This document shows positions 45,775-61,449 of a stretch of 64,000 nucleotides of DNA, piece by piece. Origin of the DNA: Thermodesulfobacteriota bacterium (lineage in GTDB: Bacteria > Desulfobacterota > Binatia > Bin18); assembly GCA_964291405.2 (NCBI GenBank), contig OZ219926.1:4096001-4160000 (forward strand). The letters are read 5' to 3'. The translations under genes were made by a program, and so were the position numbers. How positions within the stretch are numbered: the first letter of the stretch is position 1; each line of letters opens with the position of its first letter. The notes under the pieces are model-generated. The model was not told the origin of the DNA and did not search any database. It saw only the letters and a list, made by a program, of their open reading frames with translations.

Positions 45775-46496
45775 AGCCTCTCGTCAACCCAAAAGATGGT
45801 AGTCTGCTCGTCCGCATCCCCGCGGGCGAATATTGCATGGGAAGCGAGAGCGGGACGCCGCCCGAACGTCCGGCCCACCGGGTCTCGCTGGGGAGTTTTT
45901 ATATTGCCCAACACCCGGTGACGAATGCCCAGTACCGGCAGTTTGTCATCGACACTGGCCATCGTGCACCCTATCTCGATGATGCCCGGGTGGAACGTGA
46001 GAATTGGGACCAGGAGCGCCACGCTCCGCCGGCGGGGCGAGAAGCCCATCCGGTGGTCTTGGTCAGCTGGCATGATGCCCAGGCCTACTGCGCCTGGGCC
46101 GAGGGCCGGCTGCCAACCGAGGCCGAATGGGAAAGCGCGGCCCGTGGCGGGTTAGAAGACAAGCCCTATCCGTGGGGAGATGGGATCAGTCGGGAGTTGG
46201 CAAATTATGATAATCGGGCCGGGACCACCCCGGTCGGGAGCTATCCGTCCAATCCCTATGGTCTGTATGACATGGCCGGTAACGTCTGGGAGTGGGTGGC
46301 CGACTGGTACGACCCGCAGTACTATACAGTCTCCCCGACCGAGGACCCGCAGGGCTCGGCGACCGGAACGGTTAAGGTGTTGCGCGGAGGAGCCTGGCTG
46401 CTCTTCCCCGAGTTTTGCCGGGTTGCCTACCGCTTCCGCAACAACCCCAATTTTCGCTTCAATCTGATTGGCTTTCGTCTGGCGAAATCGGCCTGA
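45771..46496 (+). CDS. Formylglycine-generating enzyme (FGE/SUMF1)-fold protein
   Basis: PVTNAQY, HPVVLVSW, RLPTEAEWE, YGLYDMAGNVWEW, RGGAW, GFRLA. Confidence 0.88.
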   Translation: MKPLVNPKDGSLLVRIPAGEYCMGSESGTPPERPAHRVSLGSFYIAQHPVTNAQYRQFVIDTGHRAPYLDDARVERENWDQERHAPPAGREAHPVVLVSWHDAQAYCAWAEGRLPTEAEWESAARGGLEDKPYPWGDGISRELANYDNRAGTTPVGSYPSNPYGLYDMAGNVWEWVADWYDPQYYTVSPTEDPQGSATGTVKVLRGGAWLLFPEFCRVAYRFRNNPNFRFNLIGFRLAKSA

Positions 46497-47952
46497 GCAG
46501 ACCCTCTTGATACAACTGGGCCAGGACCTGACGGACCTGGGCAGGCGGGCTCTGCCGCCCGTCGGGATGCCGCTGATAGGCGGCCAGGATATCCACAACG
46601 GCACGCTGCGTCTGCACGCAGCGCAGCAGGGTCGGGACATTGACTCCGGACAGAAAGCGCAGGCCGCGTGGGTAACGTGGAGTCACAACCGCGGGCCGGA
46701 GCTCAACATACGAGCCTTCGATAACAGGCCGCTCCTGGATACGCAGGTCAGGCGTTACCATTACGTGTGAAACCGGCTGGGAATCAAATGGAGAAAAGGC
46801 CGTGGACGGCTGCTGCGGAGCGGCGGGACCCGCGTCGGGCTCAAGGCGCAGGCAACGGTGCTGCCAAAAGGGACGGTCCGGCCAGCGACCCTCTTCCGCG
46901 TAATAGCGGGCCGATTGTTGATAGTGGCTGCGATAGGTGTCTCGCTGACCGGCTTCGTACAGCTCGGCAGCCTGGGACTGCATGACGGGCCGCTGGAGTA
47001 TGGTGTTGACAACCACGGCGCCGGTAATGGCGGATGCCATGGCTTTCCGGACTCCCTCCGAGGACAAGGGATCAATGAACAGGCCGGCGTCACCGACGAG
47101 GAGGGTGCGGCCGGCGACAAACTGCCGCGCGGTATACAGGCTGGCATCAAAAACCTGAGGTGGGTGGGGAAGGTGCGCGTCAGCCAGAAAACCCGAGACA
47201 TAGGCCGCCTTGCGGAGCTCCTCGATATAAAAGCGCTGTAGTCCGACCCGCTTTATGGCGTGGCTGTGTCGCCAGTCAAGCAGCAGCGTGACATTCCGCT
47301 CGCCCGTGTGCAGCGGGACTGACCAGACCATGCCGTCCGCATAGGCTTCAAGCAGGGTGTTGGCGAAGTCTACGCCGGGTGGATTCCCCGCGTTTTGCCA
47401 ATAGCCCGTCAGGGCCAGGGTCTGGAAGACACTGTCCCGCTGGCGCAGGTTGTGGCGGGCGTATATGCCCGCGTGGCCGGTCGCATCAACACAGAATTCC
47501 GCCCGAATGCGCTCTCTCGAACCATAGCGGACGGTCACGCCGTGTTCCCCGTCAGGCCGGACGTCTCGCACCGGTTGTCCTTCCACAACCCGGACACCGG
47601 CCTGGCGAGCCTGATTGAGCAGAATCAGGTCAAAGTCGGCGCGCACAGACTGAAACCCGCGCCGGTGGTGATCCGAGCTGTAATACGCGGTACGCGGTCG
47701 AGGCGAGCCCCAACACACGCTGTGGCCAGACATCCGCAGAAAGCCGGCCTGTTCCACCTGCGTCCGGACACCCAGAAAGTCGAGCAGGGGGAGGATACTC
47801 GGGGTCAGGGACTCTCCAATCTGGTGCCGTGGAAAACGGCGCTTCTCAATAAGCACGACCCGATAGCCGAAGCCCGCGAGTTGGTGGGCGATAGTCGCTC
47901 CGGCCGGACCGCCGCCAGCAACTACGATGTCTGCTGCGGAAGGGAGTGTCAC
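46459..47952 (-). CDS. qhpG: FAD-dependent monooxygenase, QhpG-like (CTQ biogenesis Trp hydroxylase)
   Basis: GGGPAG, DATG, GDAGLFIDPLSSEG; C-terminal RPVIEG...VVTPRYPRG...QLYQEGL domain like QhpG; adjacent to the qhp cluster. Confidence 0.75.
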   Translation of the reverse strand: MTLPSAADIVVAGGGPAGATIAHQLAGFGYRVVLIEKRRFPRHQIGESLTPSILPLLDFLGVRTQVEQAGFLRMSGHSVCWGSPRPRTAYYSSDHHRRGFQSVRADFDLILLNQARQAGVRVVEGQPVRDVRPDGEHGVTVRYGSRERIRAEFCVDATGHAGIYARHNLRQRDSVFQTLALTGYWQNAGNPPGVDFANTLLEAYADGMVWSVPLHTGERNVTLLLDWRHSHAIKRVGLQRFYIEELRKAAYVSGFLADAHLPHPPQVFDASLYTARQFVAGRTLLVGDAGLFIDPLSSEGVRKAMASAITGAVVVNTILQRPVMQSQAAELYEAGQRDTYRSHYQQSARYYAEEGRWPDRPFWQHRCLRLEPDAGPAAPQQPSTAFSPFDSQPVSHVMVTPDLRIQERPVIEGSYVELRPAVVTPRYPRGLRFLSGVNVPTLLRCVQTQRAVVDILAAYQRHPDGRQSPPAQVRQVLAQLYQEGLLRPISPDESQSD

Positions 47953-48099
47953 GTCAGACTGCCAATGGCGAATCGTAGAATTGTTGCTTGGAGCTTATGC
48001 CGTCGGATCAGGAAGAGCAACACGAGGGCCGTGTCTATTTCGTCTCCGGCCAAGCTGCTGTACAGTCGGCCTGGTATTCGTCCTCTCAGGACTGTCGCT

Positions 48100-49839
48100 A
48101 TGCATATTGCCTCGGTACTCTCCCGTTTCTATCGGCTGTCGCCCTTTGTGAAGCCGTATGTGCGCAGAATCGGTTTCATCTTCCTCCTGTCCTCCTTTGG
48201 CACCGTTCTCGGTCTGCTCTGGCCGTTGTTTACCAAAATCCTGATTGACGATGTTTTGCTCGCACGCAACATATCGCTCTTGGTGACGCTGTGCGGGATC
48301 ATGCTGGGTGTCACGCTGCTCGGTTATGGGGTAGGGGCGATCAATCGCTATCTCTACACCCAGGTTACGGCACGCGTTTTATTTGCGCTCAGACAGCACC
48401 TCTTCGCCCATTTGCAGAAGCTCTCTCTCCGCTTCCATACCCAGGTCAAAGTGGGCGATCTCCTGTCGCGCCTGAATACCGATATTGCCGAGATTCAGTC
48501 CGTCCTCACCGACGCGGCCTTCACCTTTGTCACCAATATCTTCGTCCTGCTGGCAACCGTGGGATTTCTCATCTGGCTCAACTGGCGGCTCTTTCTGGTC
48601 AGCCTGCTCGTTATCCCGCTCCAAATATATGGGGTACGCAAAATACAGCCGTATATGGTCGAGGAAACCCGCAAGGTGCGCGAGTTGAACGCCTCGATTT
48701 CCGCCTTTCTGGTTGAGTCCCTGTCGGCCATCAAATTCGTCAAGCAGTTTGGTGCGGAGCCTACCCAATTGGGGCGTTTGGGCCGACTGGGTCAACGCTT
48801 TGTTGCGCTGGTGACACGGTTTGAAATGATCGGCTATATCGGCAGCACGACCGCGACGGCTACGACGTTTCTGGGCAGTACCCTGGTCACCCTCTACGGG
48901 GGCTATCTGGTGATTGAGGGCCAGATGAGTATTGGCAGTCTGGTTGCCTTCGCCGCCTACCAGTCGCGCGCCTTCAGTCCTATCCAGGTTCTAATGGACC
49001 TGTACCTACGCATCGAGCGGGCTGGCGTGTCCGTGGACCGGGTGTTCGAGTTTCTGGATATCGGACAGGAATATACCGAGCCGTCCGGCGGGACCTTACG
49101 CCCCGAAGGGCTACACGGGGAGATCGAATTTCGTGACGTATCGTTCGGCTATCAGACCAACGCTCCGGCCAGTCAGCCGGTGTTGCGTCAGGTGAGTTTT
49201 CTGGTGGGGGCCGGGCAGCGCCTGACCGTTCTGGGACCGAGCGGAACGGGCAAGTCCACGCTCGTCGACCTCCTGATACGGCTGTATGAGCCCCAGGCCG
49301 GGACCATCTGCCTGGACGGTCATGACGTGAGGGAGTTGGACCTGGTATGGCTACGTCAACATGTGGTCGTCATCGGCCACGAGCCCTTTCTATTTCACGC
49401 CTCGATTCTGGAAAACGTGTCGTACGCCAGCCCGGAGGCAAGCCGCGAAGAGATCGTTGCGGCGGTCACAGCAGTTGGCCTGCACGAGTATGTGACCACG
49501 TTGCCTGACGGTTACGAGACCACTGTGGGCGAACGGGGCACGCGCCTGTCGGCCGGACAGCGTCAGCGCATTGCCCTGGCCCGCGCCCTGCTCAAAAAGC
49601 CCCGGATTCTGGTGCTGGACGAAGCCCTGTCCGGCCTTGATGTCGAAAGCGAAGCCGACCTCCGTCAGACCTTGTCTGCGGTGATGCGAGGCTGCACGAC
49701 ACTCGTGGTGACCCATCGGTTGAGCTCTCTCCACGCCGACGATGCGGTTGTCGTGCTTAAGCACGGCGCGGTCGAGTGGCAGGGAACTTACCGGGAACTG
49801 ATCCGAGCGCCTGACATCTTACAGGCCGCCACCGGGTAG
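48100..49839 (+). CDS. qhpF: ABC exporter (TMD+NBD), QhpF-like
   Basis: TM domain, GPSGTGKST, LSAGQRQR, LVLDE; qhp context. The start is ATG 48100, not 47395. Confidence 0.75.
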   Translation: MHIASVLSRFYRLSPFVKPYVRRIGFIFLLSSFGTVLGLLWPLFTKILIDDVLLARNISLLVTLCGIMLGVTLLGYGVGAINRYLYTQVTARVLFALRQHLFAHLQKLSLRFHTQVKVGDLLSRLNTDIAEIQSVLTDAAFTFVTNIFVLLATVGFLIWLNWRLFLVSLLVIPLQIYGVRKIQPYMVEETRKVRELNASISAFLVESLSAIKFVKQFGAEPTQLGRLGRLGQRFVALVTRFEMIGYIGSTTATATTFLGSTLVTLYGGYLVIEGQMSIGSLVAFAAYQSRAFSPIQVLMDLYLRIERAGVSVDRVFEFLDIGQEYTEPSGGTLRPEGLHGEIEFRDVSFGYQTNAPASQPVLRQVSFLVGAGQRLTVLGPSGTGKSTLVDLLIRLYEPQAGTICLDGHDVRELDLVWLRQHVVVIGHEPFLFHASILENVSYASPEASREEIVAAVTAVGLHEYVTTLPDGYETTVGERGTRLSAGQRQRIALARALLKKPRILVLDEALSGLDVESEADLRQTLSAVMRGCTTLVVTHRLSSLHADDAVVVLKHGAVEWQGTYRELIRAPDILQAATG

Positions 49840-49861
49840 TGTTCGCACTTTTTCTCGCCTC

Positions 49862-50575
49862 TCACGTGTGACTCGTCTGTTGGAGATAGGTCCGGGCGGT
49901 TTCTGGCGTCAAGTCTGGGTGGCGCTCGGCCCGGAGGGCGAGCGTAGCGGCAATATGCGCTGAGGCAAAACTATGGCCGTAAAAGTTCTGCGTCTGGGCC
50001 GGGCCGGGCAGGGGGCGTGGATAGGGATGGGCACGAAAGGGAACCGGGCTGTCTGTGAGGGCGCGGTATTCGTCCCACGCGCAGCTTTCATCTGCGGCCA
50101 CGCCTATGACGCCGGGTAAGGTTGCGGGTAACACATCCGAGCGGTCCGGGGGAGAAGACGCAATCAGGATGAGCTTTGCTTCTTGTGCTTGGGCGACCAG
50201 GGCCGAGAGCGGCTGGCGATGCTGCGCGTTAATCATTCCCAGACTCAGACTGATGATTTTCATGCGCTGTCCAATGGCCCAGCCCAAGGCCGCTTCCAGA
50301 ACCGGAAATGAAGTGGCCAGATGGTCCGTAAAAATCTTAACCGCGTAGAGCTCGGCTTGGGGAGCTTTGGCACGGACCACCCCGGCGAGGGCGGTCCCGT
50401 GCCCGATGTGATCGGGGTACTCCGGGCTGGTCTGGACCTCGTTCTCCTCGTTCAAGAAAAAATGGATGCCGCCCGCGACGCTGCCAACATGCGAATGCTG
50501 GGCATTCACCCCGCTGTCGATAAGCGCGACTTTAACCCCCGCCCCGGTCGGCGCCCCGTCCCTGTCCTGACCCAT
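49862..50575 (-). CDS. qhpE: Short S8 subtilisin-like leader peptidase, QhpE-like
   Basis: VALIDSGV (Asp), HIGHGT (His), GHSFAS (Ser); no pro-domain or signal peptide. Confidence 0.8.
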   Translation of the reverse strand: MGQDRDGAPTGAGVKVALIDSGVNAQHSHVGSVAGGIHFFLNEENEVQTSPEYPDHIGHGTALAGVVRAKAPQAELYAVKIFTDHLATSFPVLEAALGWAIGQRMKIISLSLGMINAQHRQPLSALVAQAQEAKLILIASSPPDRSDVLPATLPGVIGVAADESCAWDEYRALTDSPVPFRAHPYPRPLPGPAQTQNFYGHSFASAHIAATLALRAERHPDLTPETARTYLQQTSHT

Positions 50576-50660
50576 GCCTTGTCCCTTGTAAGCAAAGCAT
50601 ACCAAATATGCCCGTTTATGCGAGGGAGAAAATGGTATCTACAACTCCGGTTCTTTCCAT

Positions 50661-50688
50661 TTGACTCTCACTCAGAGAGGTATAGAAT
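50661..50688 (+). promoter_or_regulatory. Putative sigma70 promoter of qhpA1
   Basis: TTGACT, 16-nt spacer, TAGAAT; a CTCTC-n5-GAGAG inverted repeat overlaps the spacer. Confidence 0.45.
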
Positions 50689-50744
50689 CCGGCTACTGCG
50701 TCAGAGATGGAGACCAGTGTTTCAGCCTGGAGGAGAGGACAGGT

Positions 50745-52424
50745 ATGACGACCGGAAAAACATGGAAACGTATGAGAAGGCACATCTGGGTATTGCTCGT
50801 GTTGGCGGGGCTCGTTGGCACGACCCATGATGTCAAGGCTGCGGAACACCAGGCGACGCCTTCCGCCCGAGAAACGTTGGTGATCCGCTGTATACGTTGC
50901 CACGCGCCGCAAGGAGAGAATGGCAAGCTTGACGCGATTGAAGCCCAGCGCAAGTCACCCGAAGGCTGGAGCATGACGCTCAGCCGTATGGTCCGAACGC
51001 ACGGGGTCGAATTGCAGGACGGAGATGCCCGCATTCTGGTCAAATATCTGAGCGATCACTACGGGCTGGCTCCCAAAGAAGTCGAGCCCTATCGCTTTAT
51101 TCTCGAACAGCGCAATACCCGCACCACGCAGGACGTGCCCAAGCCCCTCCAGGCTGGCTGTATCCAGTGCCATACCTACGCACGGATCGCCTTGCAGCGC
51201 CGGACGCAGGACTCGTGGGAGCGGCTGCCGGACGCCAAGGTCGCACTCATGGCGAATATCGGCAGTGAGACCGCCTCCGCCGGCCAGTTGAAGGATTATT
51301 GGTTTGATGATGCAAAGAAAGCTGCGGTGCCCCATCTGATCGAGCACCAGCCGTTTGAGACCGAAGCCTGGACGGCCTGGCAGGCGGCCAAAAAGCCGAG
51401 CTATGCCGGTACTTGGCTGGTGGTTGGCCATGACCCCGGCCGCGGCGGGGATTACACCGGGCAACTCACGCTGACCGCCGGGGAGGACGATCAATACACT
51501 GGCACATTTTCCTACACGTTTGCCGACGGCTCTCGGATGGAAGGCTCCACGACCGGGACGATATACACCGGCTTCCAGTGGCGCGGCGTTGCCCAAGCCA
51601 AGGAAAGTGGACCGGCCGGCCGGGAGATGCGACAGCGCGAGATTTTCTTTGCCTCCGAAGACGGGAACACCGTTTCCGGCCGGCGCTTGCTGACCAACCT
51701 CGGCGACCTGGGCATGAATGAAACCTGGTATCGCCGCCGGGGCGGGGCGCAGCTGCTGACGGTCAGTCCAGCCATGATCCAAACCGGCTCTCCCCAGACA
51801 GTAAATATTTTCGGGATGGGCTTCTCCGGGGACACGCTGTCGGCGGATAAAATTTCTTTTGGCGAGGGCGTGGGGGTGTTGTCCCTGCGGCTCGATGGCA
51901 ACCAGACGATTGTGGCGGAAGTCTTTGCCAAGGCTGGCGTGGCAGAAGGGCTGCGCACGGTCTCCATTCAAGGGGTGGCGGGAACGGGGCAGGTCGCGGT
52001 CTACGAGGCGGTCGATTACATCCGCATCACGCCGGAACGGGGCTTCGCCCGGCCCGGCGGCATTCGGACGCCAAAAATTTTTCAGCAGTACGAAGTGGTA
52101 GGCTATGCGAACGGCCCGGATAACGCCAAGGGCACGGACGACGATGTCAAGCTGGGACGGATCGGCCCGGTCAAGTGGAATCTGGAAGAGTACGTGAAAC
52201 GTCCGAACGACGACGATATTCAGTATGTCGGTGCGGTCGACCAAACCGGCCTGTTTCACCCCAACGAGGATGGGCCGAATCCCAAACGCCACCTGATGGA
52301 AGGTAATGTGGGCGATGTCTGGGTGGAAGCCTGGTATACGCCCGAGGGCGAAAAACGACCCATGGGCGCGCGCGCCCACTTATTAGTGATGCCGGCCAAG
52401 TTTGTCTTCCCACCGATTGAATAG
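50745..52424 (+). CDS. qhpA: Quinohemoprotein amine dehydrogenase alpha subunit (diheme c), copy 1
   Basis: CIRCH and CIQCH, QRKSPEGWSMTLSRM, YTGFQWRG, GPNPKR, PPIE; AGGAGAGG SD. Confidence 0.92.
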   Translation: MTTGKTWKRMRRHIWVLLVLAGLVGTTHDVKAAEHQATPSARETLVIRCIRCHAPQGENGKLDAIEAQRKSPEGWSMTLSRMVRTHGVELQDGDARILVKYLSDHYGLAPKEVEPYRFILEQRNTRTTQDVPKPLQAGCIQCHTYARIALQRRTQDSWERLPDAKVALMANIGSETASAGQLKDYWFDDAKKAAVPHLIEHQPFETEAWTAWQAAKKPSYAGTWLVVGHDPGRGGDYTGQLTLTAGEDDQYTGTFSYTFADGSRMEGSTTGTIYTGFQWRGVAQAKESGPAGREMRQREIFFASEDGNTVSGRRLLTNLGDLGMNETWYRRRGGAQLLTVSPAMIQTGSPQTVNIFGMGFSGDTLSADKISFGEGVGVLSLRLDGNQTIVAEVFAKAGVAEGLRTVSIQGVAGTGQVAVYEAVDYIRITPERGFARPGGIRTPKIFQQYEVVGYANGPDNAKGTDDDVKLGRIGPVKWNLEEYVKRPNDDDIQYVGAVDQTGLFHPNEDGPNPKRHLMEGNVGDVWVEAWYTPEGEKRPMGARAHLLVMPAKFVFPPIE

Positions 52425-52462
52425 CATGGTAGGGGTATAGGGACGGACTCTGGGAGGGCATA

Positions 52463-53926
52463 ATGGAATTACACTTCCGTGCGGAAAACGCCCACGCTAT
52501 AACGGAGGGCAACCAGAACATTCTGGTTGCGGCCAAAAGCATGTCCATGTTTGTCATGGACCCGGTCTCCCAGGCCGTCCTCGATTATGTGCAGGCGCAT
52601 CCGCACGCGATCCAGGAAGAGCTGACCGCCAGTCTGGCCGAGCACTTCCCGCTGGCCGAAATAACCGAGACGATCCAGGAATTTATCACCTTAGAAATCC
52701 TGCAAACCCAGGAGCGTTCCGCTACTCCCGCTCCCCTGCCGGTGCTCGACGTCGAGCATTTCCCGGTGAGTTCGCTCGTTGTCAACGTGGCCAATAAGTG
52801 TAACCTCCACTGCACCTACTGCTACGAACCCGAGGGGGCGAAATACGGCCCGTCGCCGGTCCAGATGGACTGGGAGACCGCGCGCGACAGCGTCGATTTT
52901 CTGTTCAAGAAGTCCGGCGCCAGCAAAGAGGTCAATTTGATTTTCTTTGGCGGAGAGGCGCTGCTGAACTTCAAGCTCATGCGTCGGACCGTCGCCTATG
53001 CGGAAGAAAAGGCCCAGGCCGAAGACAAGGTCGTCGACTTTTCGCTCACGACCAACGGAACGCTCTTAACCGACGAGGTAATCGACTTTTTCCAGGCCCA
53101 TCGCTTTGGCGTGACCATCAGCATTGATGGTCCCAAAGACCTGCACGACAAGCGGCGCGTTTTTCTTACAAAGCGGGGCGAACAGAAAGGCTCGTACGAT
53201 CTCTTACGGCCCCGCCTGGAACGCCTGCTGGAACGCTATACGGTCAGGCCGGTGGTCGCCCGGGTCACGGTCACAAAAGACGCCATCGATATCGTGCGCA
53301 CCTACGAGCATCTCACGCAGCTCGGTTTTTTTGAGGTTGGCTTTTCGCCGGTCACCGCCCAGGCCGAGACCGACTATGGCTTGGAGCCGGCCGATTTGCG
53401 TGAATTGCTGCGGCAGTTTCGCGAGCTTGGCGCGGTGTATATCGAGCGGGCGCTCAACCAGCAGTACACCGGGTTTTCAAATTTGAGCACCATGCTGACC
53501 GACATTCACCTGGGCACAAACAAGCTCTTTCCGTGCGGGGCCGGCCTGGGCCTGTTGGACGTGGACGGCAACGGTGATGTGTATTTATGTCATCGGTTTC
53601 CGGGCACCGAGGAACAAAAATACGGCAATGTCAAAGACGGCATTCAGTACGACCGGCTGAACGCCTTTATCAACGGTGCCCATCTGGGCAATAAGCCGGT
53701 ATGTCAGACCTGTTGGATTCGGGGCCTGTGCGGCGGCGGGTGCTACCACGAAGCCATGACCGAGTTTGGGGACACGGCACTGCCGAATCTGCACTACTGC
53801 GATTTCTTGCGGGAATGGACGGAATACGGCATTGGCGTGTATATGCAGTTGCAAGAACAAACCCCTGGGTTTGTCGAGCAGTATGTGTTACGCGGGCGTG
53901 GAGACGCCCCAAAAGAATTAACCTAA
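52463..53926 (+). CDS. qhpD: Radical SAM/SPASM thioether-forming maturase
   Basis: N-terminal RRE-like region, CNLHCTYC, FFGGE, SPASM CGAG...CH...CQTCWIRGLCGGGCYHE...YC. Confidence 0.92.
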   Translation: MELHFRAENAHAITEGNQNILVAAKSMSMFVMDPVSQAVLDYVQAHPHAIQEELTASLAEHFPLAEITETIQEFITLEILQTQERSATPAPLPVLDVEHFPVSSLVVNVANKCNLHCTYCYEPEGAKYGPSPVQMDWETARDSVDFLFKKSGASKEVNLIFFGGEALLNFKLMRRTVAYAEEKAQAEDKVVDFSLTTNGTLLTDEVIDFFQAHRFGVTISIDGPKDLHDKRRVFLTKRGEQKGSYDLLRPRLERLLERYTVRPVVARVTVTKDAIDIVRTYEHLTQLGFFEVGFSPVTAQAETDYGLEPADLRELLRQFRELGAVYIERALNQQYTGFSNLSTMLTDIHLGTNKLFPCGAGLGLLDVDGNGDVYLCHRFPGTEEQKYGNVKDGIQYDRLNAFINGAHLGNKPVCQTCWIRGLCGGGCYHEAMTEFGDTALPNLHYCDFLREWTEYGIGVYMQLQEQTPGFVEQYVLRGRGDAPKELT

Positions 53927-53939
53927 GGGAGAGTGTGGG

Positions 53940-54281
53940 ATGAAACACCTCAAGGCAGCGAACTCCAAGGCCCGGGCCGTCACCGCCAGTGTGGCACAAG
54001 CGACTTCCACCGAGGAAGACGTTATCGGGATGGCCCAACCCATCGGTTGTACGACGATCTTCAATCCGGGCTGGGAGGCGAATCCGTGGGGTGGAGCCAG
54101 CAGCATGTGCGCCCCCATGGAGGCCGACCTGCTGAGCTGTGCGAATCTGTGCTGGTGGCCGGCTCAGGTGCCGGACAGCCTCCAGAGTGCTCCCGAGTGG
54201 GCGAAAGGCTGCTCGGGCATGAATCAGGAAGACTGGCGCAACCTCGACGTTGTTTTCCCCAAGACCGATACGTCCGGATAA
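53940..54281 (+). CDS. qhpC: QHNDH gamma subunit (CTQ precursor), copy 1
   Basis: MKHLK leader (30 aa); core GC...PGWE...C-x-PMEADL..C...CWWPAQVPD with C7/E16, C27/D33, C37/W43 and C41/D49 conserved. Confidence 0.95.
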   Translation: MKHLKAANSKARAVTASVAQATSTEEDVIGMAQPIGCTTIFNPGWEANPWGGASSMCAPMEADLLSCANLCWWPAQVPDSLQSAPEWAKGCSGMNQEDWRNLDVVFPKTDTSG

Positions 54282-54306
54282 ACGCAGCGGGCGGAAGGAG
54301 CCGGTG

Positions 54307-55398
54307 GTGCACGGGAAAAACAGGCCGCTGCTGGGGGGTGTGCTCTTTGTGTTCGGACTGCTGGTCCTGCCGCAGACGACCTGGGCCAAGTGGTACCTCC
54401 TGGCCAGCACGCATCCCAACAACCTGGTCGTCGTCGATACCGAAACCGACACGGTGGTCAAAGACATTGCCCTTGAGGGTCGTGGGCCGGCGCTCTATAT
54501 CGCGCCAAACCCGGCCCAGCCGCAGTTCGCCTATGTCGTAAATAATCTGGCCAAAAGCGTTGCCATGGTCGATCTGGACGAGGGCAAGCAGGTCAAAAGC
54601 TTTGACTTGTCGAGCGACAACGAGCTCGTACGCACCATGGCGATCGATGTGAACATGCAGGGCACCCGGCTGTTCGTGCACGAAATGCCGGTTCAGCAAG
54701 ACATGGGCCGCTATACGGCCCGGGACAACCGGATACGGGTCATTGACCTGGAGACCAATGAGACGCTGACCACGTTTACCGCTCCCCGCCAGGTGATGGG
54801 ATTAGCCTCTTCAAAAGACGGCAAACGCCTCTATCTGTTCAGCGTCGGTCAGGACATTTTTGTGCACAGCACGGAAGACGGCAGCCTACTCGATGTCATT
54901 CCGCTGGCAAACCGCAACATCAGCGGCATTGCGAGAACCGACGGCCTGCCGCTCGGCGGGACCTATCAGGAAAGCGGCCACCTCGTCTCTTTCGGGACCT
55001 TCACCACCGATTCCATCACCAATCAGGTGACGCTCGGTATCGGCTCTCTCGACCTGACTCAGGAAGACCCGGAACTGAAGGTCGTTGAATTGCAGCCTTT
55101 TGTCGAAGGCGATTATGTGCTCACGGGTGCGCTGTCGCCGCATACGAACAAGGCCTATTTCGCATACAACAGTTTGTGGAAGGTTGACCCGAAAACCCGT
55201 CACATTGAGAAAAAGGTGTCGCTGTCCAACACCTATTTTGCGCCGCTCGTTCACCCCGAAGGCAAGAAGGTCTACTGCGGCAGCAACTGGCACGATGTCG
55301 CGGTCTACGACGCGGAATCACTCGACCTGATCACCAAAGTCCCCCTGGGCCATTCGCAGACCGGAGGGGTCAGTGTCTTGCGGTTTGTGAATCGTTAG
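54307..55398 (+). CDS. qhpB: QHNDH beta subunit (beta-propeller), copy 1
   Basis: Signal peptide, HPNNLVVVD, PRQV, propeller repeats; follows qhpC. GTG start after AAGGAG. Confidence 0.85.
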   Translation: MHGKNRPLLGGVLFVFGLLVLPQTTWAKWYLLASTHPNNLVVVDTETDTVVKDIALEGRGPALYIAPNPAQPQFAYVVNNLAKSVAMVDLDEGKQVKSFDLSSDNELVRTMAIDVNMQGTRLFVHEMPVQQDMGRYTARDNRIRVIDLETNETLTTFTAPRQVMGLASSKDGKRLYLFSVGQDIFVHSTEDGSLLDVIPLANRNISGIARTDGLPLGGTYQESGHLVSFGTFTTDSITNQVTLGIGSLDLTQEDPELKVVELQPFVEGDYVLTGALSPHTNKAYFAYNSLWKVDPKTRHIEKKVSLSNTYFAPLVHPEGKKVYCGSNWHDVAVYDAESLDLITKVPLGHSQTGGVSVLRFVNR

Positions 55399-55406
55399 CG
55401 CCCGGT

Positions 55407-56039
55407 ATGTCTCGGACGATACTTACCCGCCGAAATGTTCTCCAGGGGATCGGCACCGCCGCCCTTCTCGGCCAGGCGTACAGTCTGGCGCATGCCGTTG
55501 AAAAAGGCGACGCCGCCAGCTTCGCCTCGGTTGTGAAACGCCGGCGCATGATCCGTAAGTACGAGGACAGGCCGGTCCCTGAAGAAGAGATCCGAGCGCT
55601 GCTGCGCTACGCCGTGCGTGCGCCCAGCGCGGGGAATCTACAGCCGTGGGAGTTTATTCTGGTGCGTGACACCGAGGTCCGAGACCAACTCGCCAAGGCG
55701 GCGATGAATCAGAACTCGGTTGCCACCGCGCCGATTATTGTTGCCACCTGTGCCGATATCCAACGCATGGGTGAGAAATACGGCACGCGCGGCGCTTTTT
55801 ATAGTTTAGTGGATACCGCGTTTGCCTCATTACTCATTTTGTTAGGCGCAACCGAGCGCGGGCTCGGGGCCTGCTTTGTTGGCGCGTACAATCCGGAAGA
55901 AGTCGCCAAGATATTGCAACTGCCCAGCCACGTCCGTCCGGTCGGACTCATCACCCTCGGTTATCCTGCGGAAAAGCCACGCAAACCGACGAACAAGAAA
56001 ATCCCGCTCGAGAACCTGATCCACGAGAATACGTGGTAG
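55407..56039 (+). CDS. Nitroreductase-family flavoprotein with Tat-like signal
   Basis: TRRNVL...AHA signal; RRMIRKY, APSAGNLQPWEF, GLGACFVG, LGYP. Confidence 0.85.
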   Translation: MSRTILTRRNVLQGIGTAALLGQAYSLAHAVEKGDAASFASVVKRRRMIRKYEDRPVPEEEIRALLRYAVRAPSAGNLQPWEFILVRDTEVRDQLAKAAMNQNSVATAPIIVATCADIQRMGEKYGTRGAFYSLVDTAFASLLILLGATERGLGACFVGAYNPEEVAKILQLPSHVRPVGLITLGYPAEKPRKPTNKKIPLENLIHENTW

Positions 56040-56190
56040 GCGCGGGAATCGTATCCCTCTTATTTTTTGTTACACAGGAGGCTTGTCTGTTGACAGTGCT
56101 TTTTGTAGTGGACTATAGGCGGTAGTAGGTGTTGAGCACAGGTGAGGACGAGCGAAGAGTGATTGCAGGGCTGTAATGGAGGGCATGATC

Positions 56191-57840
56191 ATGAACGCTA
56201 TATGGGGGAGACGTGGTCGACTAAGCGGATACCTCTTGAGCCTCTTCTTGGGCTTCACGCTCTGTTTTGCAGGACAACCCGCGTGGAGCCAGGAGATGAC
56301 CGGGCCGGCTTTGCTGGAGACGCGTTGCTCGGGTTGTCATCCTCCTCATGAAGAAGGGGGCAAGCTTGACGCGATCGAACATCAGCGCAAGCCCCCCGAA
56401 GCCTGGGAGATGACTATCTATCGCATGTTGCGCACCCACGGAGCGAATCTGGAAGCGGGTGAGGCTCGCATCCTGATCAAATACCTGAGCGATCAGTATG
56501 GCCTGGCACCGGCGGAAGTCAAACCCTTTCGGTATGCCTTAGAGAAACGGAACAATACGATAGAAAAACATGTTCCCAAGGAAGTGAAGGGCACCTGTGT
56601 GGCCTGTCACTCCTATGCGCGGATCGCCCTGCAGCGCCGTACGCCCGAATCGTGGGGGCGTCTGCCGGACCTGACCGCGGCCTTGCTGCCGAATATCGAA
56701 AACCAGGTCGCCTCAACGGGGCTGCTGGGCGACTTCTGGTACACGCTGGTGCGGAAGGATACCGTCCCCTATCTGGCGCAGACCTATCCGTTTGACTCAG
56801 CCTCTTGGAGGCAGTGGCAGGCCAAGCCCAAACCGGACTACGCCGGGGTCTGGAATGTGGTCGGTCACGACCCTGGAAAGGGCGGGGCCTACACCGGCCG
56901 GATGACGCTGACCGCGTCGGGGAACGATAACTACGAGGGCCAGCTCGCGTATGACTTTGCCGATGGGTCGCGTATGACCGGGAAAAACACTGTGACGATG
57001 TATACCGGCTTCCAGTGGCGGGGTGTGGCCGAGGTCGAGGGCGGCAAGACCCACAAAGAAATCTTTTTTGCCAATGAGGACGGAACGGTCGTAAGCGGGA
57101 GGCGGTTGCTGACGCTTGTTGGCGATCTGGGCATGGAAGAGACCTTATACCGGAATACGGGCCAGGCAAAATTTTTGGCCGTCAGCCCGGCCGCGCTCAA
57201 AGTCGGCGAGCGCTCCACGCTCAGGCTGTTTGGCATGAACCTCCCCGAGTCCCTGACCGCGGCTTCGATCTCTCTGGGAACGGGTGTGACGGTTCAGTCT
57301 CTGCGGAGGGTTGATGCTGATACGGTCATGGCCGACGTGGTAGTGGGGAAAAAGGCAAAAGTAGGCGCTCGACAGGCTCGGATTCGGGGAGTTGATGGGG
57401 AACAGTCGCTGGCCGTCTACGATACGGTTGACTATATCCGTCTCTCTCCGGAACAGGCGTTTTCTCGGCCTGGTGGCATTCGCACCCCCAAAATTTTTCA
57501 GCAGTTTGAGGCGGTCGGATATACAAATGGTCCGGACGGACGAAAGGGAACTGACGACGATATGAAGCTGGGACGTGTCGGTCCGGTGACGTGGAAGCTG
57601 AACGAGTACGTGCGGCGCGTCAATGATGACGATGTGCGCTTTGTCGGTGCCATGGATGCCCACGGTCTTTTTACGCCGGCCGAGGACGGTCCAAATCCAA
57701 AACGGCACTTGCAGCAGGGCAATGTCGGCGATGTCTGGGTGGAGGCCTGGTATCGGCCAAATGGCGCCCGTCGGCCTATGGGAGCGCGCGCCCACCTGCT
57801 GGTCATGCCGGCAAAGTATAATTTTCAACCGATTGAATAG
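56191..57840 (+). CDS. qhpA: Quinohemoprotein amine dehydrogenase alpha subunit, copy 2
   Basis: CSGCH and CVACH, QRKPPEAWEMTIYRM; colinear with copy 1. Start could be 56176, 56185 or 56191. Confidence 0.92.
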   Translation: MNAIWGRRGRLSGYLLSLFLGFTLCFAGQPAWSQEMTGPALLETRCSGCHPPHEEGGKLDAIEHQRKPPEAWEMTIYRMLRTHGANLEAGEARILIKYLSDQYGLAPAEVKPFRYALEKRNNTIEKHVPKEVKGTCVACHSYARIALQRRTPESWGRLPDLTAALLPNIENQVASTGLLGDFWYTLVRKDTVPYLAQTYPFDSASWRQWQAKPKPDYAGVWNVVGHDPGKGGAYTGRMTLTASGNDNYEGQLAYDFADGSRMTGKNTVTMYTGFQWRGVAEVEGGKTHKEIFFANEDGTVVSGRRLLTLVGDLGMEETLYRNTGQAKFLAVSPAALKVGERSTLRLFGMNLPESLTAASISLGTGVTVQSLRRVDADTVMADVVVGKKAKVGARQARIRGVDGEQSLAVYDTVDYIRLSPEQAFSRPGGIRTPKIFQQFEAVGYTNGPDGRKGTDDDMKLGRVGPVTWKLNEYVRRVNDDDVRFVGAMDAHGLFTPAEDGPNPKRHLQQGNVGDVWVEAWYRPNGARRPMGARAHLLVMPAKYNFQPIE

Positions 57841-57930
57841 GGATTGAACAAACCCTGGCGTTAGAGCGAGCAGTATGCTACGAGGCTGGGAGGAGACGCG
57901 AGAGTTTCCGGTCAGCGCAAGGAGGGCGTG

Positions 57931-58263
57931 ATGAAACACCTCAAGGCCGCGAACCATAAAGCGCATAGAGTCGAGACCGCCCCCGCGGCCAAACGGCAGG
58001 TGCCGGAAGACGTTCTGGGCATGGCCCAGCCGATGGGCTGCACCACGATTTTTAACCCCGGCTGGGAGGCGAACCCCTGGGGCGGCACCGCGGGCATGTG
58101 CGCGCCAATGGAGGCTGACCTGCTCGGCTGTGCCAATGTGTGTTGGTGGCCGGCTCAGGTGCCCGACAGCCTGCAAAACTACCCGGAGTGGGCCAGTGCC
58201 TGTTCGGGTGTCAACGCCGAGGACTGGCGTAGCTTGGAGCTGGTCTTCCCCGAGAAGAAATAG
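57931..58263 (+). CDS. qhpC: QHNDH gamma subunit (CTQ precursor), copy 2
   Basis: MKHLKAAN leader (30 aa); same Cys/Asp/Glu/Trp pattern as copy 1; AAGGAGG SD. Confidence 0.95.
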   Translation: MKHLKAANHKAHRVETAPAAKRQVPEDVLGMAQPMGCTTIFNPGWEANPWGGTAGMCAPMEADLLGCANVCWWPAQVPDSLQNYPEWASACSGVNAEDWRSLELVFPEKK

Positions 58264-58315: not shown

Positions 58316-59140
58316 ATGAACCCTGGGCAAAGACAGCGTCTGTGGAGCCGAGGCGTTTTCTTTGCGGGACTGTTCCTGCTCCTGCACGGGTTCCCTCCGC
58401 TCGTTGAGGCGGACTGGTATATCGCCTCGACAACCATCCCACCGAACTCCTCCGCTTCTGCTTGGCGTCCTCCTCAGGTTGTGACGCGTGTTGCCCGGAA
58501 CCGACTGACCTACGAGACCCGAGCCTGGACGCAAATTATCGACCTCAACACGCAGCAGCTCTCGATTATCAGCCATCTGGGACAGGTGTACTGGCAGGGA
58601 CCAATCGAGGCCTACGCCACGGTTATGGCAGCGCGCACCCAGGAACGGCGGGCGCAGGCGGAACGCTTGATGAACCAGCTCCCTCATGGGCCACAACAAT
58701 TCGTGACAAGACGAGCCGGTCCGTTTGATAGCCTGAGCCCCAGGCTGACGATTACGATCACCCCGATGTCGGAGACCGAGTCGGTCGCCGGGTATACGGC
58801 TCACAAATATCGTATCCAGCGGAACGGCATCGCGTATGAAGAAACCTGGTTGGCTGAGAAGATCAAGCTGGGGACGGATGTTGATATGTCCCGGCTGAAC
58901 GCGTTTATCGACAAGCTGCAAACTTCTCGAACGACGCCGCCAGGAGCTGTGCTCGCCGAATTAACCGAGCTGATCAATATAGGCTACCCAGTCAGGACCG
59001 TGAACCTGGTCACCCAGGTGGTCAAGGAAGTGGTCCAGGCCGAGCAGCGGCCGATTCGGGCTGAGGTATTTATGGTGCCGGATGGCTATACCAAAAAGGC
59101 GCTGGTCGAGATCATGTTTCCAACAAGGAGGCGTTTATGA
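58316..59140 (+). CDS. Exported DUF4412-like protein
   Basis: Signal peptide ending VEA; ETESVAGYTAHKY...EETWL, GYPVR, FMVPDGY; ATGA overlap with qhpB2. Confidence 0.6.
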   Translation: MNPGQRQRLWSRGVFFAGLFLLLHGFPPLVEADWYIASTTIPPNSSASAWRPPQVVTRVARNRLTYETRAWTQIIDLNTQQLSIISHLGQVYWQGPIEAYATVMAARTQERRAQAERLMNQLPHGPQQFVTRRAGPFDSLSPRLTITITPMSETESVAGYTAHKYRIQRNGIAYEETWLAEKIKLGTDVDMSRLNAFIDKLQTSRTTPPGAVLAELTELINIGYPVRTVNLVTQVVKEVVQAEQRPIRAEVFMVPDGYTKKALVEIMFPTRRRL

Positions 59141-60240
59141 AGGGCAAGAGTCTGTTATGGGCAGTGTCAACGCTGAGTGCGCTGGTCCTCGTTTGTAGTC
59201 TACCCGGCCTGGTGTGGGCCAAATGGTATATCCTGACCGGCGCCCATCCGAACTCCGTGTATGTGATTGATGCGGAAACCGATACGGTCGTGAAGACCAT
59301 CCCGCTTGAGGGAAAAGGGCCCATCTTTACCGTGGCGCCGAATCCAGCCCGACCCCAGTTCGCCTATGCGGTCACCAACCTCAGCCAAAGCGTGGCCCTG
59401 GTTGACCTGGACGAGGGAAAAGAGGTCCTGCGCTTTAATCTCTCCAACGACAACGAACTGGTCAGGACCATGGCCATTGATGTCAACCCGCAGGGCAATC
59501 GCCTCTACATCCATGAAATGCCGTTGAAGAAAGACCTGGGCAAATACGAGATACTGGAGACCCGCATCCGAGTCATCGATCTGGACACCAATACGGTCGC
59601 CAATGTGTTCCCCGCCCCCCGTCAGGTGATGGCGCTGGCGTCGTCCCAAGACGGGAAAAAGCTGTACGCCTTTAGCGTGGGCAGAGATATCTCGGTGCTG
59701 AATCCAGAGACGGGTCAGGTCGAGGACGTTATCCCCATGGCGGACTGGAACGTGACCGGCGCCGGCAAGCTGGAGGGACTGCCCTTGTGGAACCCCTATC
59801 AGGAAAACGACTACCTGGCCTCGTTTGCCGTGTATATGACGGACACGATTACCCAGCATGCCACCGTTGGAGTAGCCACCCTTGACCTCAAGCAGGCCAA
59901 TCCGGAGCTGCAAGTGGTTGAGCTTCAGCCCTATGAGGCCGAATGGTGGACGGCCCACGGGGCGGTATCGGCCAAAACCCAGAAGGCCTATCTCGGCTGG
60001 GACAAGCTGTGGAAGATGGATATCGCGACGCGCCAGATGGAAGAAGTGAGGCAGTTCGACACCAACAGTGTCTTCGGCTCTTTTCTCCATCCCGATGGGA
60101 CCAAAGTCTACTGCGGTGGAAACTGGAGTGCGTTGTCCGTGTTTGACGCCGACACGCTCAAGCCTCTCAAGAAGATTGATCTGGGGCACTCCCAAGCCGG
60201 TGCGGGTATCCGGTTTGTCAACCGCGAGAATGGGTTCTAA
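59137..60240 (+). CDS. qhpB: QHNDH beta subunit, copy 2
   Basis: Signal peptide, HPNSVYVID, PRQVMAL; clear paralog of 54307-55398. Confidence 0.85.
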   Translation: MKGKSLLWAVSTLSALVLVCSLPGLVWAKWYILTGAHPNSVYVIDAETDTVVKTIPLEGKGPIFTVAPNPARPQFAYAVTNLSQSVALVDLDEGKEVLRFNLSNDNELVRTMAIDVNPQGNRLYIHEMPLKKDLGKYEILETRIRVIDLDTNTVANVFPAPRQVMALASSQDGKKLYAFSVGRDISVLNPETGQVEDVIPMADWNVTGAGKLEGLPLWNPYQENDYLASFAVYMTDTITQHATVGVATLDLKQANPELQVVELQPYEAEWWTAHGAVSAKTQKAYLGWDKLWKMDIATRQMEEVRQFDTNSVFGSFLHPDGTKVYCGGNWSALSVFDADTLKPLKKIDLGHSQAGAGIRFVNRENGF

Positions 60241-60282: not shown

Positions 60283-61449
60283 GTGCTGATGCAATACGAT
60301 CTACTCCTCAAAGGCGGTCAGGTCATTGACCCCGGCTGGCCGCAGTACCACACACTCCAGCCCGCAGATGTGGCGATTCGGAACGGCAAGATAGCGGCCG
60401 TCGCCGCCGACATCCCCGCAGACCAAGCGGCCCGCGTGCGCGAGGTGTCCGGTCATATTGTCTGTCCTGGGTTGATCGACATTCACGCCCACACCTTTGT
60501 GAACGCCCACGATATGGGCGCCGAAACCGATCGGCGCTGTGCCGCGAGTGGGGTGACCACGCTGATTGACGCCGGCAGCGCCGGTTCAGCCACCTTCCCC
60601 GGACTGCGGCAGTATGTGGCCAATACGAGCGAAGTCCGGCTGCGCTGTTTCATTCATCTGTCAGCCCTGGGTCTGATTCACCTTCGGGTCGGAGAGCTGA
60701 TGCATATGGACTATGCCGACCCTGAGGGCTGTGCGCGCACGATTGCGGACAACCGCGACCTTGCCATAGGCGTCAAGCTGCGCTTCAGCAATAACGTCGT
60801 GCCGGACGCCGCCGGGACCGAACCGCTGCGTCTCGCCCGCCAGGCGGCCGATATGGCAGGCGTGCCATTGATGGTGCATATTACCGACGCGCTGCTGCCG
60901 GTCCCGCGGATTTTAGAATTCCTCAAGCCGGGCGATGTGGTGACCCACTGCTTCCACGGGTTTGCATACGGCATCATGGGACCGGAAAAGAAAGCCATTC
61001 TCAAAGAAGTCTGGGCGGCCCAGAAAGAGGGGATTATTTTTGACTGCGCGCACGGGCGCATGCACTTTCCGTTTCCGTTTGTCCGGCAGGCCCTGGACGC
61101 GGGATTTTTGCCCGACACGATCGCGACCGACCTGACGCTCCCCAGCGCGACCAGAGGGCCGGTCTTTGATCTGCCGACGACCATGTCCAAGCTCCTCAAC
61201 CTGGGCATGAGTCTGGAAGACGTGATCCGCTGCGTTACCACCAATCCCGCCCGCGTGATCGGGGAGGCTGAGCAAATTGGAACGCTCAGGCCCGGTGCCA
61301 CTGCCGATGTCGCCGTGCTCAGCCTTGAACAGGGAGAATTCGACTTTGTCGATACCGACCAGAACCATATGACCGGCGAGAAAAAGCTAGTCGCCCAGCT
61401 AACGGTCAAAGATGGACGGGTGTGGTATCAGGCCGACCGAGCGAGATAA
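60283..61449 (+). CDS. Amidohydrolase/deacetylase family metallohydrolase (dihydroorotase-like)
   Basis: PGLIDIHAH, DAGSAG, GVKLR, MVH, THCFH, TIATD. Confidence 0.85.
   Translation: MLMQYDLLLKGGQVIDPGWPQYHTLQPADVAIRNGKIAAVAADIPADQAARVREVSGHIVCPGLIDIHAHTFVNAHDMGAETDRRCAASGVTTLIDAGSAGSATFPGLRQYVANTSEVRLRCFIHLSALGLIHLRVGELMHMDYADPEGCARTIADNRDLAIGVKLRFSNNVVPDAAGTEPLRLARQAADMAGVPLMVHITDALLPVPRILEFLKPGDVVTHCFHGFAYGIMGPEKKAILKEVWAAQKEGIIFDCAHGRMHFPFPFVRQALDAGFLPDTIATDLTLPSATRGPVFDLPTTMSKLLNLGMSLEDVIRCVTTNPARVIGEAEQIGTLRPGATADVAVLSLEQGEFDFVDTDQNHMTGEKKLVAQLTVKDGRVWYQADRAR

Follow-up and report, generated by a model that had tools for sequence, protein, structure and literature searches.

A putative second quinohemoprotein amine dehydrogenase of Candidatus Binatia with threonine at the position of the distal haem histidine

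The alpha subunit of quinohemoprotein amine dehydrogenase (QHNDH), QhpA, is a di-haem protein, and its bis-His second haem may be the one nearer CTQ. Here, we analysed a window of 64,000 nt from a Thermodesulfobacteriota bacterium (contig OZ219926.1, positions 4,096,001 to 4,160,000 of the forward strand) that encodes two paralogs of this subunit. One of them, QhpA2, has a Thr residue in the alignment column in which the QhpA family has its distal His. Threonine is unable to ligate haem iron, whereas lysine, which occupies this column in the neighbouring paralog QhpA1, is able to do so. The locus raises the question of how haem 2 of QhpA2 is coordinated, and whether the protein belongs to a second amine dehydrogenase, acts in cofactor maturation or is a duplicate that is being lost.

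Thr167 and the conserved histidine of the QhpA family

The qhpA2 gene (56176..57840, plus strand) is an intact ORF of 554 codons, and its 554 aa product appears to be the di-haem alpha subunit, of the Thr type, of a second QHNDH. The Pfam scan of QhpA2 returned the full QHNDH alpha architecture, consisting of the di-haem domain and alpha domains II, III and IV (PF09098, 2.9e-46; PF14930, 2.8e-19; PF09099, 2.5e-11; PF09100, 2.6e-34), and only these four families, PF03150 (CCP/MauG) being absent. Of the solved alpha chains, phmmer matched 1jmx_A at E 3e-80 and 1jju_A at E 1.2e-79, in both cases over the whole protein, and the AlphaFold2 (AF2) model computed from a 69-row alignment (mean pLDDT 91.9) had the same two chains as its best PDB matches in Foldseek (target-normalised TM 0.94 for 1jmx_A and 0.93 for 1jju_A, rmsd 2.2-2.3 A).

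The haem 1 motif, C51SGCH55 (56326..56340, plus strand), is invariant in the 69-row alignment, and Met84 of the 'RM' pair (56425..56427, plus strand) is, judging by its conservation, the probable sixth ligand of the His/Met haem. The second CXXCH, C141VACH145 (56596..56610, plus strand), is read directly from the sequence as the haem 2 motif, and Thr167 (ACC; 56674..56676, plus strand) lies 26 residues past Cys141, so that the stretch reads CVACH…RLPDL-T. The original prediction, which had pointed to a Thr codon at this place and to a following helix free of His, Met and Lys, was exact in coordinates and peptide upon re-reading, and none of the three residues occurs between His145 and Arg192. 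The phmmer alignments to 1jmx_A and 1jju_A are gap-free from the haem 2 motif to residue 167 and place Thr167 opposite the His of 'NFHLGQ' (residue 126, chain index) in both 1JJU_A and 1JMX_A. Among the matches listed, the attachment residues C141, C144 and H145 are kept in 14/14 Thr-type and 106/106 Lys-type sequences; as the intact CXXCH motif shows, haem 2 is still attached to QhpA2.

To see how this column behaves across the family, we searched 1.84 billion representatives, which gave 761 matches, and examined the best 150 of these. Two CXXCH motifs spaced 75-120 residues apart were present in 86 of the 150, which were aligned, and the 64 fragments or partial matches were dropped. The His position of the original prediction was supported by this tabulation: among these 86 representatives (from the best 150 of 761), column 167 is H in 80, K in 2, L in 2, A in 1 and a gap in 1, and the rows with A and with the gap appear truncated or garbled. 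In the same 86 representatives, column 84 is equally distinct (M 83, H 2, T 1), while column 162, where the solved proteins have a further His, varies (L 26, K 24, R 13, others), as does column 88. A near-invariant Met and a near-invariant His, beyond the two CXXCH His residues, form the pattern expected of one His/Met and one His/His haem. Column 167 is thus supported by conservation as a haem ligand position, and the conserved His is probably the ligand itself. In the literature that we searched, apart from primary structure papers and subscription journals, we found neither a statement of how the QHNDH haems are ligated nor one of their distances from CTQ.

Two structural modules and a single maturation set

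In the window, the gene order is qhpG (minus strand), qhpF, qhpE (minus strand), qhpA1, qhpD, qhpC1, qhpB1, a nitroreductase-family gene, qhpA2, qhpC2, a DUF4412 gene, qhpB2 and an amidohydrolase gene. There are thus two sets of structural genes, and a single maturation set (qhpD/E/F/G, 46459-53926) is common to both modules. The maturation set comprises the FAD monooxygenase gene qhpG (46459..47952, minus strand; PF04820 and PF01494), the function of which is given as Trp dihydroxylation in PMC7876137, the ABC exporter gene qhpF (47395..49839, plus strand; PF00664 and PF00005), the subtilisin-like leader peptidase gene qhpE (49862..50605, minus strand; PF00082) and qhpD (52463..53926, plus strand; PF04055), which encodes the radical-SAM maturase forming the thioethers. 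The N-terminal residues 1-230 of the qhpF ORF are far less conserved, and the real start is probably downstream of the ORF start. The qhpD gene is the only copy in the cluster and sits between qhpA1 and qhpC1, as it does in relatives.

The first module consists of qhpA1 (50661..52424, plus strand), encoding the Lys-type alpha subunit, the gamma subunit gene qhpC1 (53940..54281, plus strand; PF08992; 1jju_C, E 6.3e-26) and the beta subunit gene qhpB1 (54250..55398, plus strand). It is followed by the nitroreductase-family gene (55407..56039, plus strand; PF00881), the position of which after qhpB is conserved in Binatia operons and the product of which has a twin-arginine-like N-terminus, with the motif TRRNVL in the translation. 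In the second module, qhpA2 is followed by qhpC2 (57928..58263, plus strand; PF08992, E 1.1e-30; 1jju_C, E 1.7e-27), which encodes the gamma subunit and putative CTQ carrier of this module, by the DUF4412 gene (58316..59140, plus strand; PF14371, E 7.6e-6) between qhpC2 and qhpB2, and by qhpB2 (59137..60240, plus strand) for the beta-propeller beta subunit, which gave weak beta-propeller Pfam matches. The amidohydrolase gene (60283..61449, plus strand; PF07969 and PF01979) is the last gene of the operon. The CWW motif and the four Cys residues that characterise the solved gamma chains are present in both QhpC1 and QhpC2, and QhpC2 retains every residue of CTQ and of the cross-links. QhpB2 is 53-55% identical to the QhpB1 orthologs in tblastn comparisons with the loci of relatives.

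The same arrangement was seen in a context sample of 118 related loci that contain a QhpA-like ORF. Of the 22 Thr-type genes found in these loci, 14 share their locus with a Lys-type operon that precedes them, and 8 are alone on theirs. Seven of the lone genes are within 2.3 kb of a contig end, and for three of these contig-end cases (L008, L011 and L024) the assembly has a Lys-type operon on a different contig (L035, L034 and L019); for the eighth (L059), a Lys-type operon (L086) is found elsewhere on its contig. Wherever the context is visible, a genome with a Thr-type gene also carries a Lys-type qhp operon with maturation genes. Wherever the DNA downstream of a Thr-type gene is visible, it holds a qhpC2 and a qhpB2 belonging to that module (18 modules), with the DUF4412 gene between them in 16 of the 18, and two Thr modules (L059 and L060) have their own qhpD as well. 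In eight single-module loci, the nitroreductase-family gene is directly followed by the amidohydrolase gene, an adjacency that marks the insertion point of the second module. The module has also been damaged in places: in one locus (L040), A2 is missing residues 109-429, C2 carries a frameshift and B2 is cut short, and in another (L044), A2 and C2 are deleted. Because it is deleted or decayed in some relatives, the A2 module is dispensable.

At the level of genomes, 63 of the 401 in a sample of the class had a match; this sample was scored by identity, and the residue in column 167 was read only in the fetched loci. A match was present in 26 of the 27 other genomes of the window's genus (g1). 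In fourteen of these 26, a copy with 89% identity or more to A2 occurs alongside one of 53-61% identity, and 12 have no full-length copy at 89% identity or above. In a sister genus, two genomes carry a copy of 71% identity in addition to one of 57-59%. A DNA pattern for 'LPDLTA[AG]LLPN' gave 0 matches in metagenome contigs, which were then scanned with a protein seed, and qhpA2 is present in runs labelled sponge metagenome.

Lysine and threonine forms in Candidatus Binatia

The relatives without the His in column 167 belong to Candidatus Binatia. A search for close relatives scored 307 proteins at E <= 0.001, and among the best 120 of these 307, column 167 of the cluster representatives is K in 105, T in 13, L in 1 and M in 1. 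Throughout this clade, as aligned here, the distal His is lost and is mostly replaced by Lys. Leu was found in P0014, P0121 and P0127, and Met in P0036. In QhpA1 of the window, Lys193 (AAG, 51237-51239) sits in the column of Thr167. The original prediction had singled out this position as exactly where the two paralogs diverge; the difference itself stands, but the wording was too strong, as QhpA1 and QhpA2 are only 57% identical overall. In the literature searched, again apart from primary structure papers and subscription journals, we found no description of the clade-wide change from His to Lys or Thr, and no paper on amine dehydrogenase in Binatota was found.

The two replacements differ in what their conservation can tell. 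Among the matches listed, the Lys is invariant in 106/106 Lys-type sequences with pairwise identities down to 48%, and in the haem domain of these sequences only 33 of 175 columns are invariant, including the Lys and the haem-site Cys, His and Met. That the Lys is kept in all 106 argues that column 167 is still an axial position in the Binatia clade, and haem 2 of QhpA1 is presumed to be His/Lys. Thr167 is likewise present in 14/14 Thr-type sequences among the matches listed (61-98% pairwise identity) and in the 22/22 Thr-type ORFs of the fetched loci, where it is encoded by ACC in 19, ACA in 2 and ACT in 1. However, 236 of 514 columns (46%) are invariant within the Thr group, so the invariance of Thr alone is weak evidence, and the strong evidence is the family-wide His.

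The qhpA2 gene is under purifying selection, with dN/dS values against five relatives of 0.10-0.12, compared with 0.08-0.14 for qhpA1 and 0.03-0.05 for qhpB2. Metatranscriptome contigs from two studies map on both modules, including A2, C2 and B2, and one RNA-library contig of 416 bases covers 56271-56686 with the Thr codon unchanged. These contigs are consistent with transcription of the second module, given that DNA can occur in such libraries. The qhpG/F/E region (46400-49423) had no contig cover in any of the four RNA-library runs, where gaps between contigs are not evidence of silence.

In trees rooted on His-type sequences, the Thr-type rows form a deep grade within which the main Lys clade is nested, with both FastTree and IQ-TREE and with short internodes. 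Earlier branches lead to one Leu-type sequence and to a small clade in which one Met-type sequence groups with two of the Lys type. Monophyly of the Thr type was not rejected in the AU test (p 0.173). On these trees, the Thr lineage is old and not a recent defect, whichever of Thr and Lys came first.

Coordination of haem 2 and the role of the second module

A ligand lost at column 167 might have been replaced from elsewhere, and we compared 14 Thr-type with 106 Lys-type alpha sequences over residues 40-554. The only alpha columns specific to the Thr lineage are T140, L166, T167 and Q177, none of which is an iron-ligating residue. Across alpha, gamma and beta, the Thr lineage has no His, Met, Lys, Cys or Tyr of its own except for three weak positions in beta, the ligand-capable and Thr-module-specific Tyr42, Met201 and Lys290 of QhpB2. 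Most of the residues that are specific to the Thr module in the partner subunits (G67 and Y85 of QhpC2; T54, T80, Y124, W270 and W288 of QhpB2) are ancestral and common to His-type operons. A fifth Cys of gamma was also considered as a haem ligand and rejected, as it is common to Thr-, Lys- and His-type Binatia operons. As no replacement ligand specific to the Thr lineage is found in alpha, an open or solvent-bound haem 2 can fairly be inferred, and the five-coordinate haem of the original prediction, which placed it tentatively beside CTQ, appears reasonable on this basis.

We give about an even chance to QhpA2 belonging, as alpha subunit, to a second amine dehydrogenase isoenzyme in which the protein supplies no sixth ligand to haem 2. 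A2-C2-B2 would then be a second complete quinohemoprotein amine dehydrogenase, derived from a duplication within Candidatus Binatia and matured via the qhpD/E/F/G genes of the neighbouring Lys-type operon. Amines would still be oxidised at its CTQ, with the electrons leaving through both haems. Haem 2 would be five-coordinate or would bind water, hydroxide or an exogenous small ligand, and its potential and spin state would be shifted with respect to the classical His/His haem and the presumed His/Lys haem of QhpA1; a Lys amine probably fills in QhpA1 the position that is vacant in QhpA2. The status as a second isoenzyme is suggested by the presence of own C2 and B2 genes in 18 modules, the CTQ residues of QhpC2, the predicted fold, the dN/dS values and the RNA-library contigs. 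What speaks against this reading is that a high-spin haem within an electron relay is unusual and that the module is dispensable.

Haem 2 may instead be six-coordinate after all. Its ligand would then come from alpha (Met79, His231 or Met544) or from one of the proteins encoded alongside it (QhpB2, QhpC2 or the DUF4412 protein), or would have been relocated in the whole clade, and Lys versus Thr would amount to second-sphere tuning only. We regard this as a serious possibility, to which we nevertheless incline less than to a vacant site. Met79, His231 and Met544 stand out when the Thr and Lys types are compared with the His type: His231 and Met544 are conserved in the clade, and Met79 is found in 14/14 Thr-type and 106/106 Lys-type sequences but is Met in only 36/80 of the His type, among the matches listed. 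Moreover, the single sequence with Met167 (P0036) carries Leu79, the Thr module has Met201, Lys290 and Tyr42 of QhpB2 to offer, and K, T, L and M are all tolerated in column 167 within one clade; a column tolerating Leu and Met may mean that the ligand has moved elsewhere. However, all of the alpha candidates occur beyond the Thr lineage, and Met79 is five residues from Met84 in what AF2 predicts to be the same helix. Both crystallised proteins, which are of the His type and have the conserved His, carry Met at this place too. The Lys in 106/106 Lys-type sequences is furthermore hard to explain without an axial role.

The remaining alternatives question whether QhpA2 is a dehydrogenase subunit, or a functional protein, at all. 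The quinol-to-quinone oxidation that ends CTQ formation is ordinary electron transfer, for which an open iron site is unnecessary; this bears on the suggestion of the original prediction that QhpA2 might be a MauG-like maturation enzyme whose open haem oxidises a CTQ precursor, for instance that of QhpC1. Activation of an oxidant would suit an open haem, and PMC7876137 speculates that the alpha-subunit haems may perform this last step, from quinol to quinone. Yet A2 is invariably accompanied by its own gamma and beta genes and retains the full four-domain alpha architecture, with no match to the CCP/MauG family. Many genomes moreover have the Lys type only (12 of the 26 other matching g1 genomes were without a full-length copy at 89% identity or above, and 8 loci have no second module), and the module is lost or decayed in some relatives, so a role of A2 in maturing C1 is very unlikely. 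The damaged loci (L040 and L044) and the patchy distribution within the genus would fit a redundant duplicate that is being lost, in which Thr is a tolerated loss of function. This, too, we consider improbable, though somewhat less so than a maturation enzyme, since dN/dS is ~0.1 and on par with A1, Thr, the CXXCH motifs and Met84 are retained down to 61% pairwise identity, the Thr-type rows form a deep grade in the trees and the sequence is found in RNA libraries.

Returning to an isoenzyme with a vacant sixth position, its likeness to the systems of Paracoccus denitrificans and Pseudomonas putida (1JJU/1PBY, 1JMX/1JMZ) extends from the four Pfam domains, the two CXXCH motifs, the Met and the fold (TM 0.93-0.94) to the operon partners qhpC, qhpB, qhpD, qhpE, qhpF and qhpG. 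In contrast to these proteins, to which it is 33% identical, QhpA2 has Thr for their His126, and it is encoded in a duplicated module without maturation genes of its own. The Lys-type Binatia alphas, including QhpA1, are closer: they belong to the same clade, are alike in Met79, Met84, both CXXCH motifs and the missing distal His, and are 57% identical, the value for QhpA1. They differ in having a ligating-capable Lys (106/106), in adjoining qhpD/E/F/G and in being the sole type in many genomes. The bacterial di-haem cytochrome c peroxidases, some of which are constitutively five-coordinate, and MauG (both PF03150) offer an analogy only, namely that of a di-haem c-type protein with one haem whose distal site is open or can be opened; they have no sequence or family relation to QhpA2 and a different fold, whereas QhpA2 keeps three beta-sandwich domains.

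A haem 2 that is constitutively open in QhpA2 and used for chemistry or sensing seems unlikely to us, albeit less so than decay or a maturation role. If it were open, one version would be that amine oxidation is coupled directly to the reduction of H2O2, O2, NO or nitrite at this haem, making the second QHNDH a self-contained amine:X oxidoreductase. In the other version, free amine substrate or ammonia would fill the vacancy and thereby gate the haem potential and the electron flow.

QHNDH is a textbook quinoprotein, and to our knowledge its two haems have so far been treated solely as a wire for electrons. The large uncultured clade described here has lost the distal His, more than 100 of its sequence clusters having Lys instead and an old lineage of paralogs having Thr. 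The Lys and Thr forms, present in one operon, would constitute a natural swap of the axial ligand on a common scaffold, from His to Lys to none. Should the Thr form prove to have an open haem 2, no QHNDH before it would have had a haem accessible to ligands, and a role of the alpha-subunit haems beyond electron relay would become testable.

Genes flanking the dehydrogenase modules

The last gene of the operon encodes an amidohydrolase (60283-61449) and holds this terminal position in single- and double-module relatives alike (74-97% identity); its product may free the amine substrate by amide cleavage. At qhpF, the ABC exporter gene, the longest open reading frame overlaps the opposite-strand FAD monooxygenase gene qhpG by ~550 bases (47395-47952), and the true start probably lies further downstream, because conservation among relatives is much lower over residues 1 to ~190-230 of this frame than over the remainder. 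Directly 3' of qhpB, in a position kept in the Lys-type Binatia qhp operons, is a nitroreductase-family gene (PF00881, 55407-56039), the product of which has an N-terminus resembling a twin-arginine signal (TRRNVLQG) and may be a periplasmic flavoprotein that serves as a partner to the dehydrogenase.

The second module and the gamma subunits

A DUF4412 gene (58316-59140) lies between qhpC2 and qhpB2, and this arrangement was found in 16 of the 18 Thr-type modules. Remoter DUF4412 copies (39-43% identity) were also noticed between qhpG and qhpF at two loci from related genomes, L080 and L082. The second module is decaying in two related genomes: at L040 (15262-19864), A2 is internally deleted with ~1.9 kb of unidentified DNA upstream, C2 carries a frameshift and B2 is truncated, while at L044 (15175-17119) A2 and C2 are deleted and DUF4412 and qhpB2 are retained. 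The gamma subunits of the Binatia operons, common to the Thr, Lys and Binataceae His types, have a fifth Cys within an A/G-C-S/T-G motif (Cys92 of QhpC2, codon at 58201-58203, with an equivalent in QhpC1); neither of the two solved gamma chains has a Cys at this position. The fifth Cys could form an additional cross-link.

The distal position of haem 2

Elsewhere in the genome, PF09098 gives a weak hit (E 5.8e-4, 21 bits) that does not reach the family cut-off. It lies in a 144-aa open frame (G000:C3:3986819-3987103, locus L003), and this frame probably encodes a small, unrelated cytochrome c. Among the QhpA homologs, Leu was observed instead of the distal His of haem 2 in P0121, P0014 and P0127, the last being 37% identical and outside the Binatia clade, and Met, paired with Leu at column 79, in P0036; there has therefore been more than one loss of the His. 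QhpA1 has Lys193 (codon at 51237-51239) where the family has this His. Within the Binatia clade, the same replacement was found in 105 of the 120 close cluster representatives (the best 120 of 307), and the Lys is kept in all 106 Lys-type sequences (QhpA1 and homologs within the range P0015-P0120). This conservation suggests a c-type haem with His/Lys ligation throughout a clade of QHNDH enzymes.
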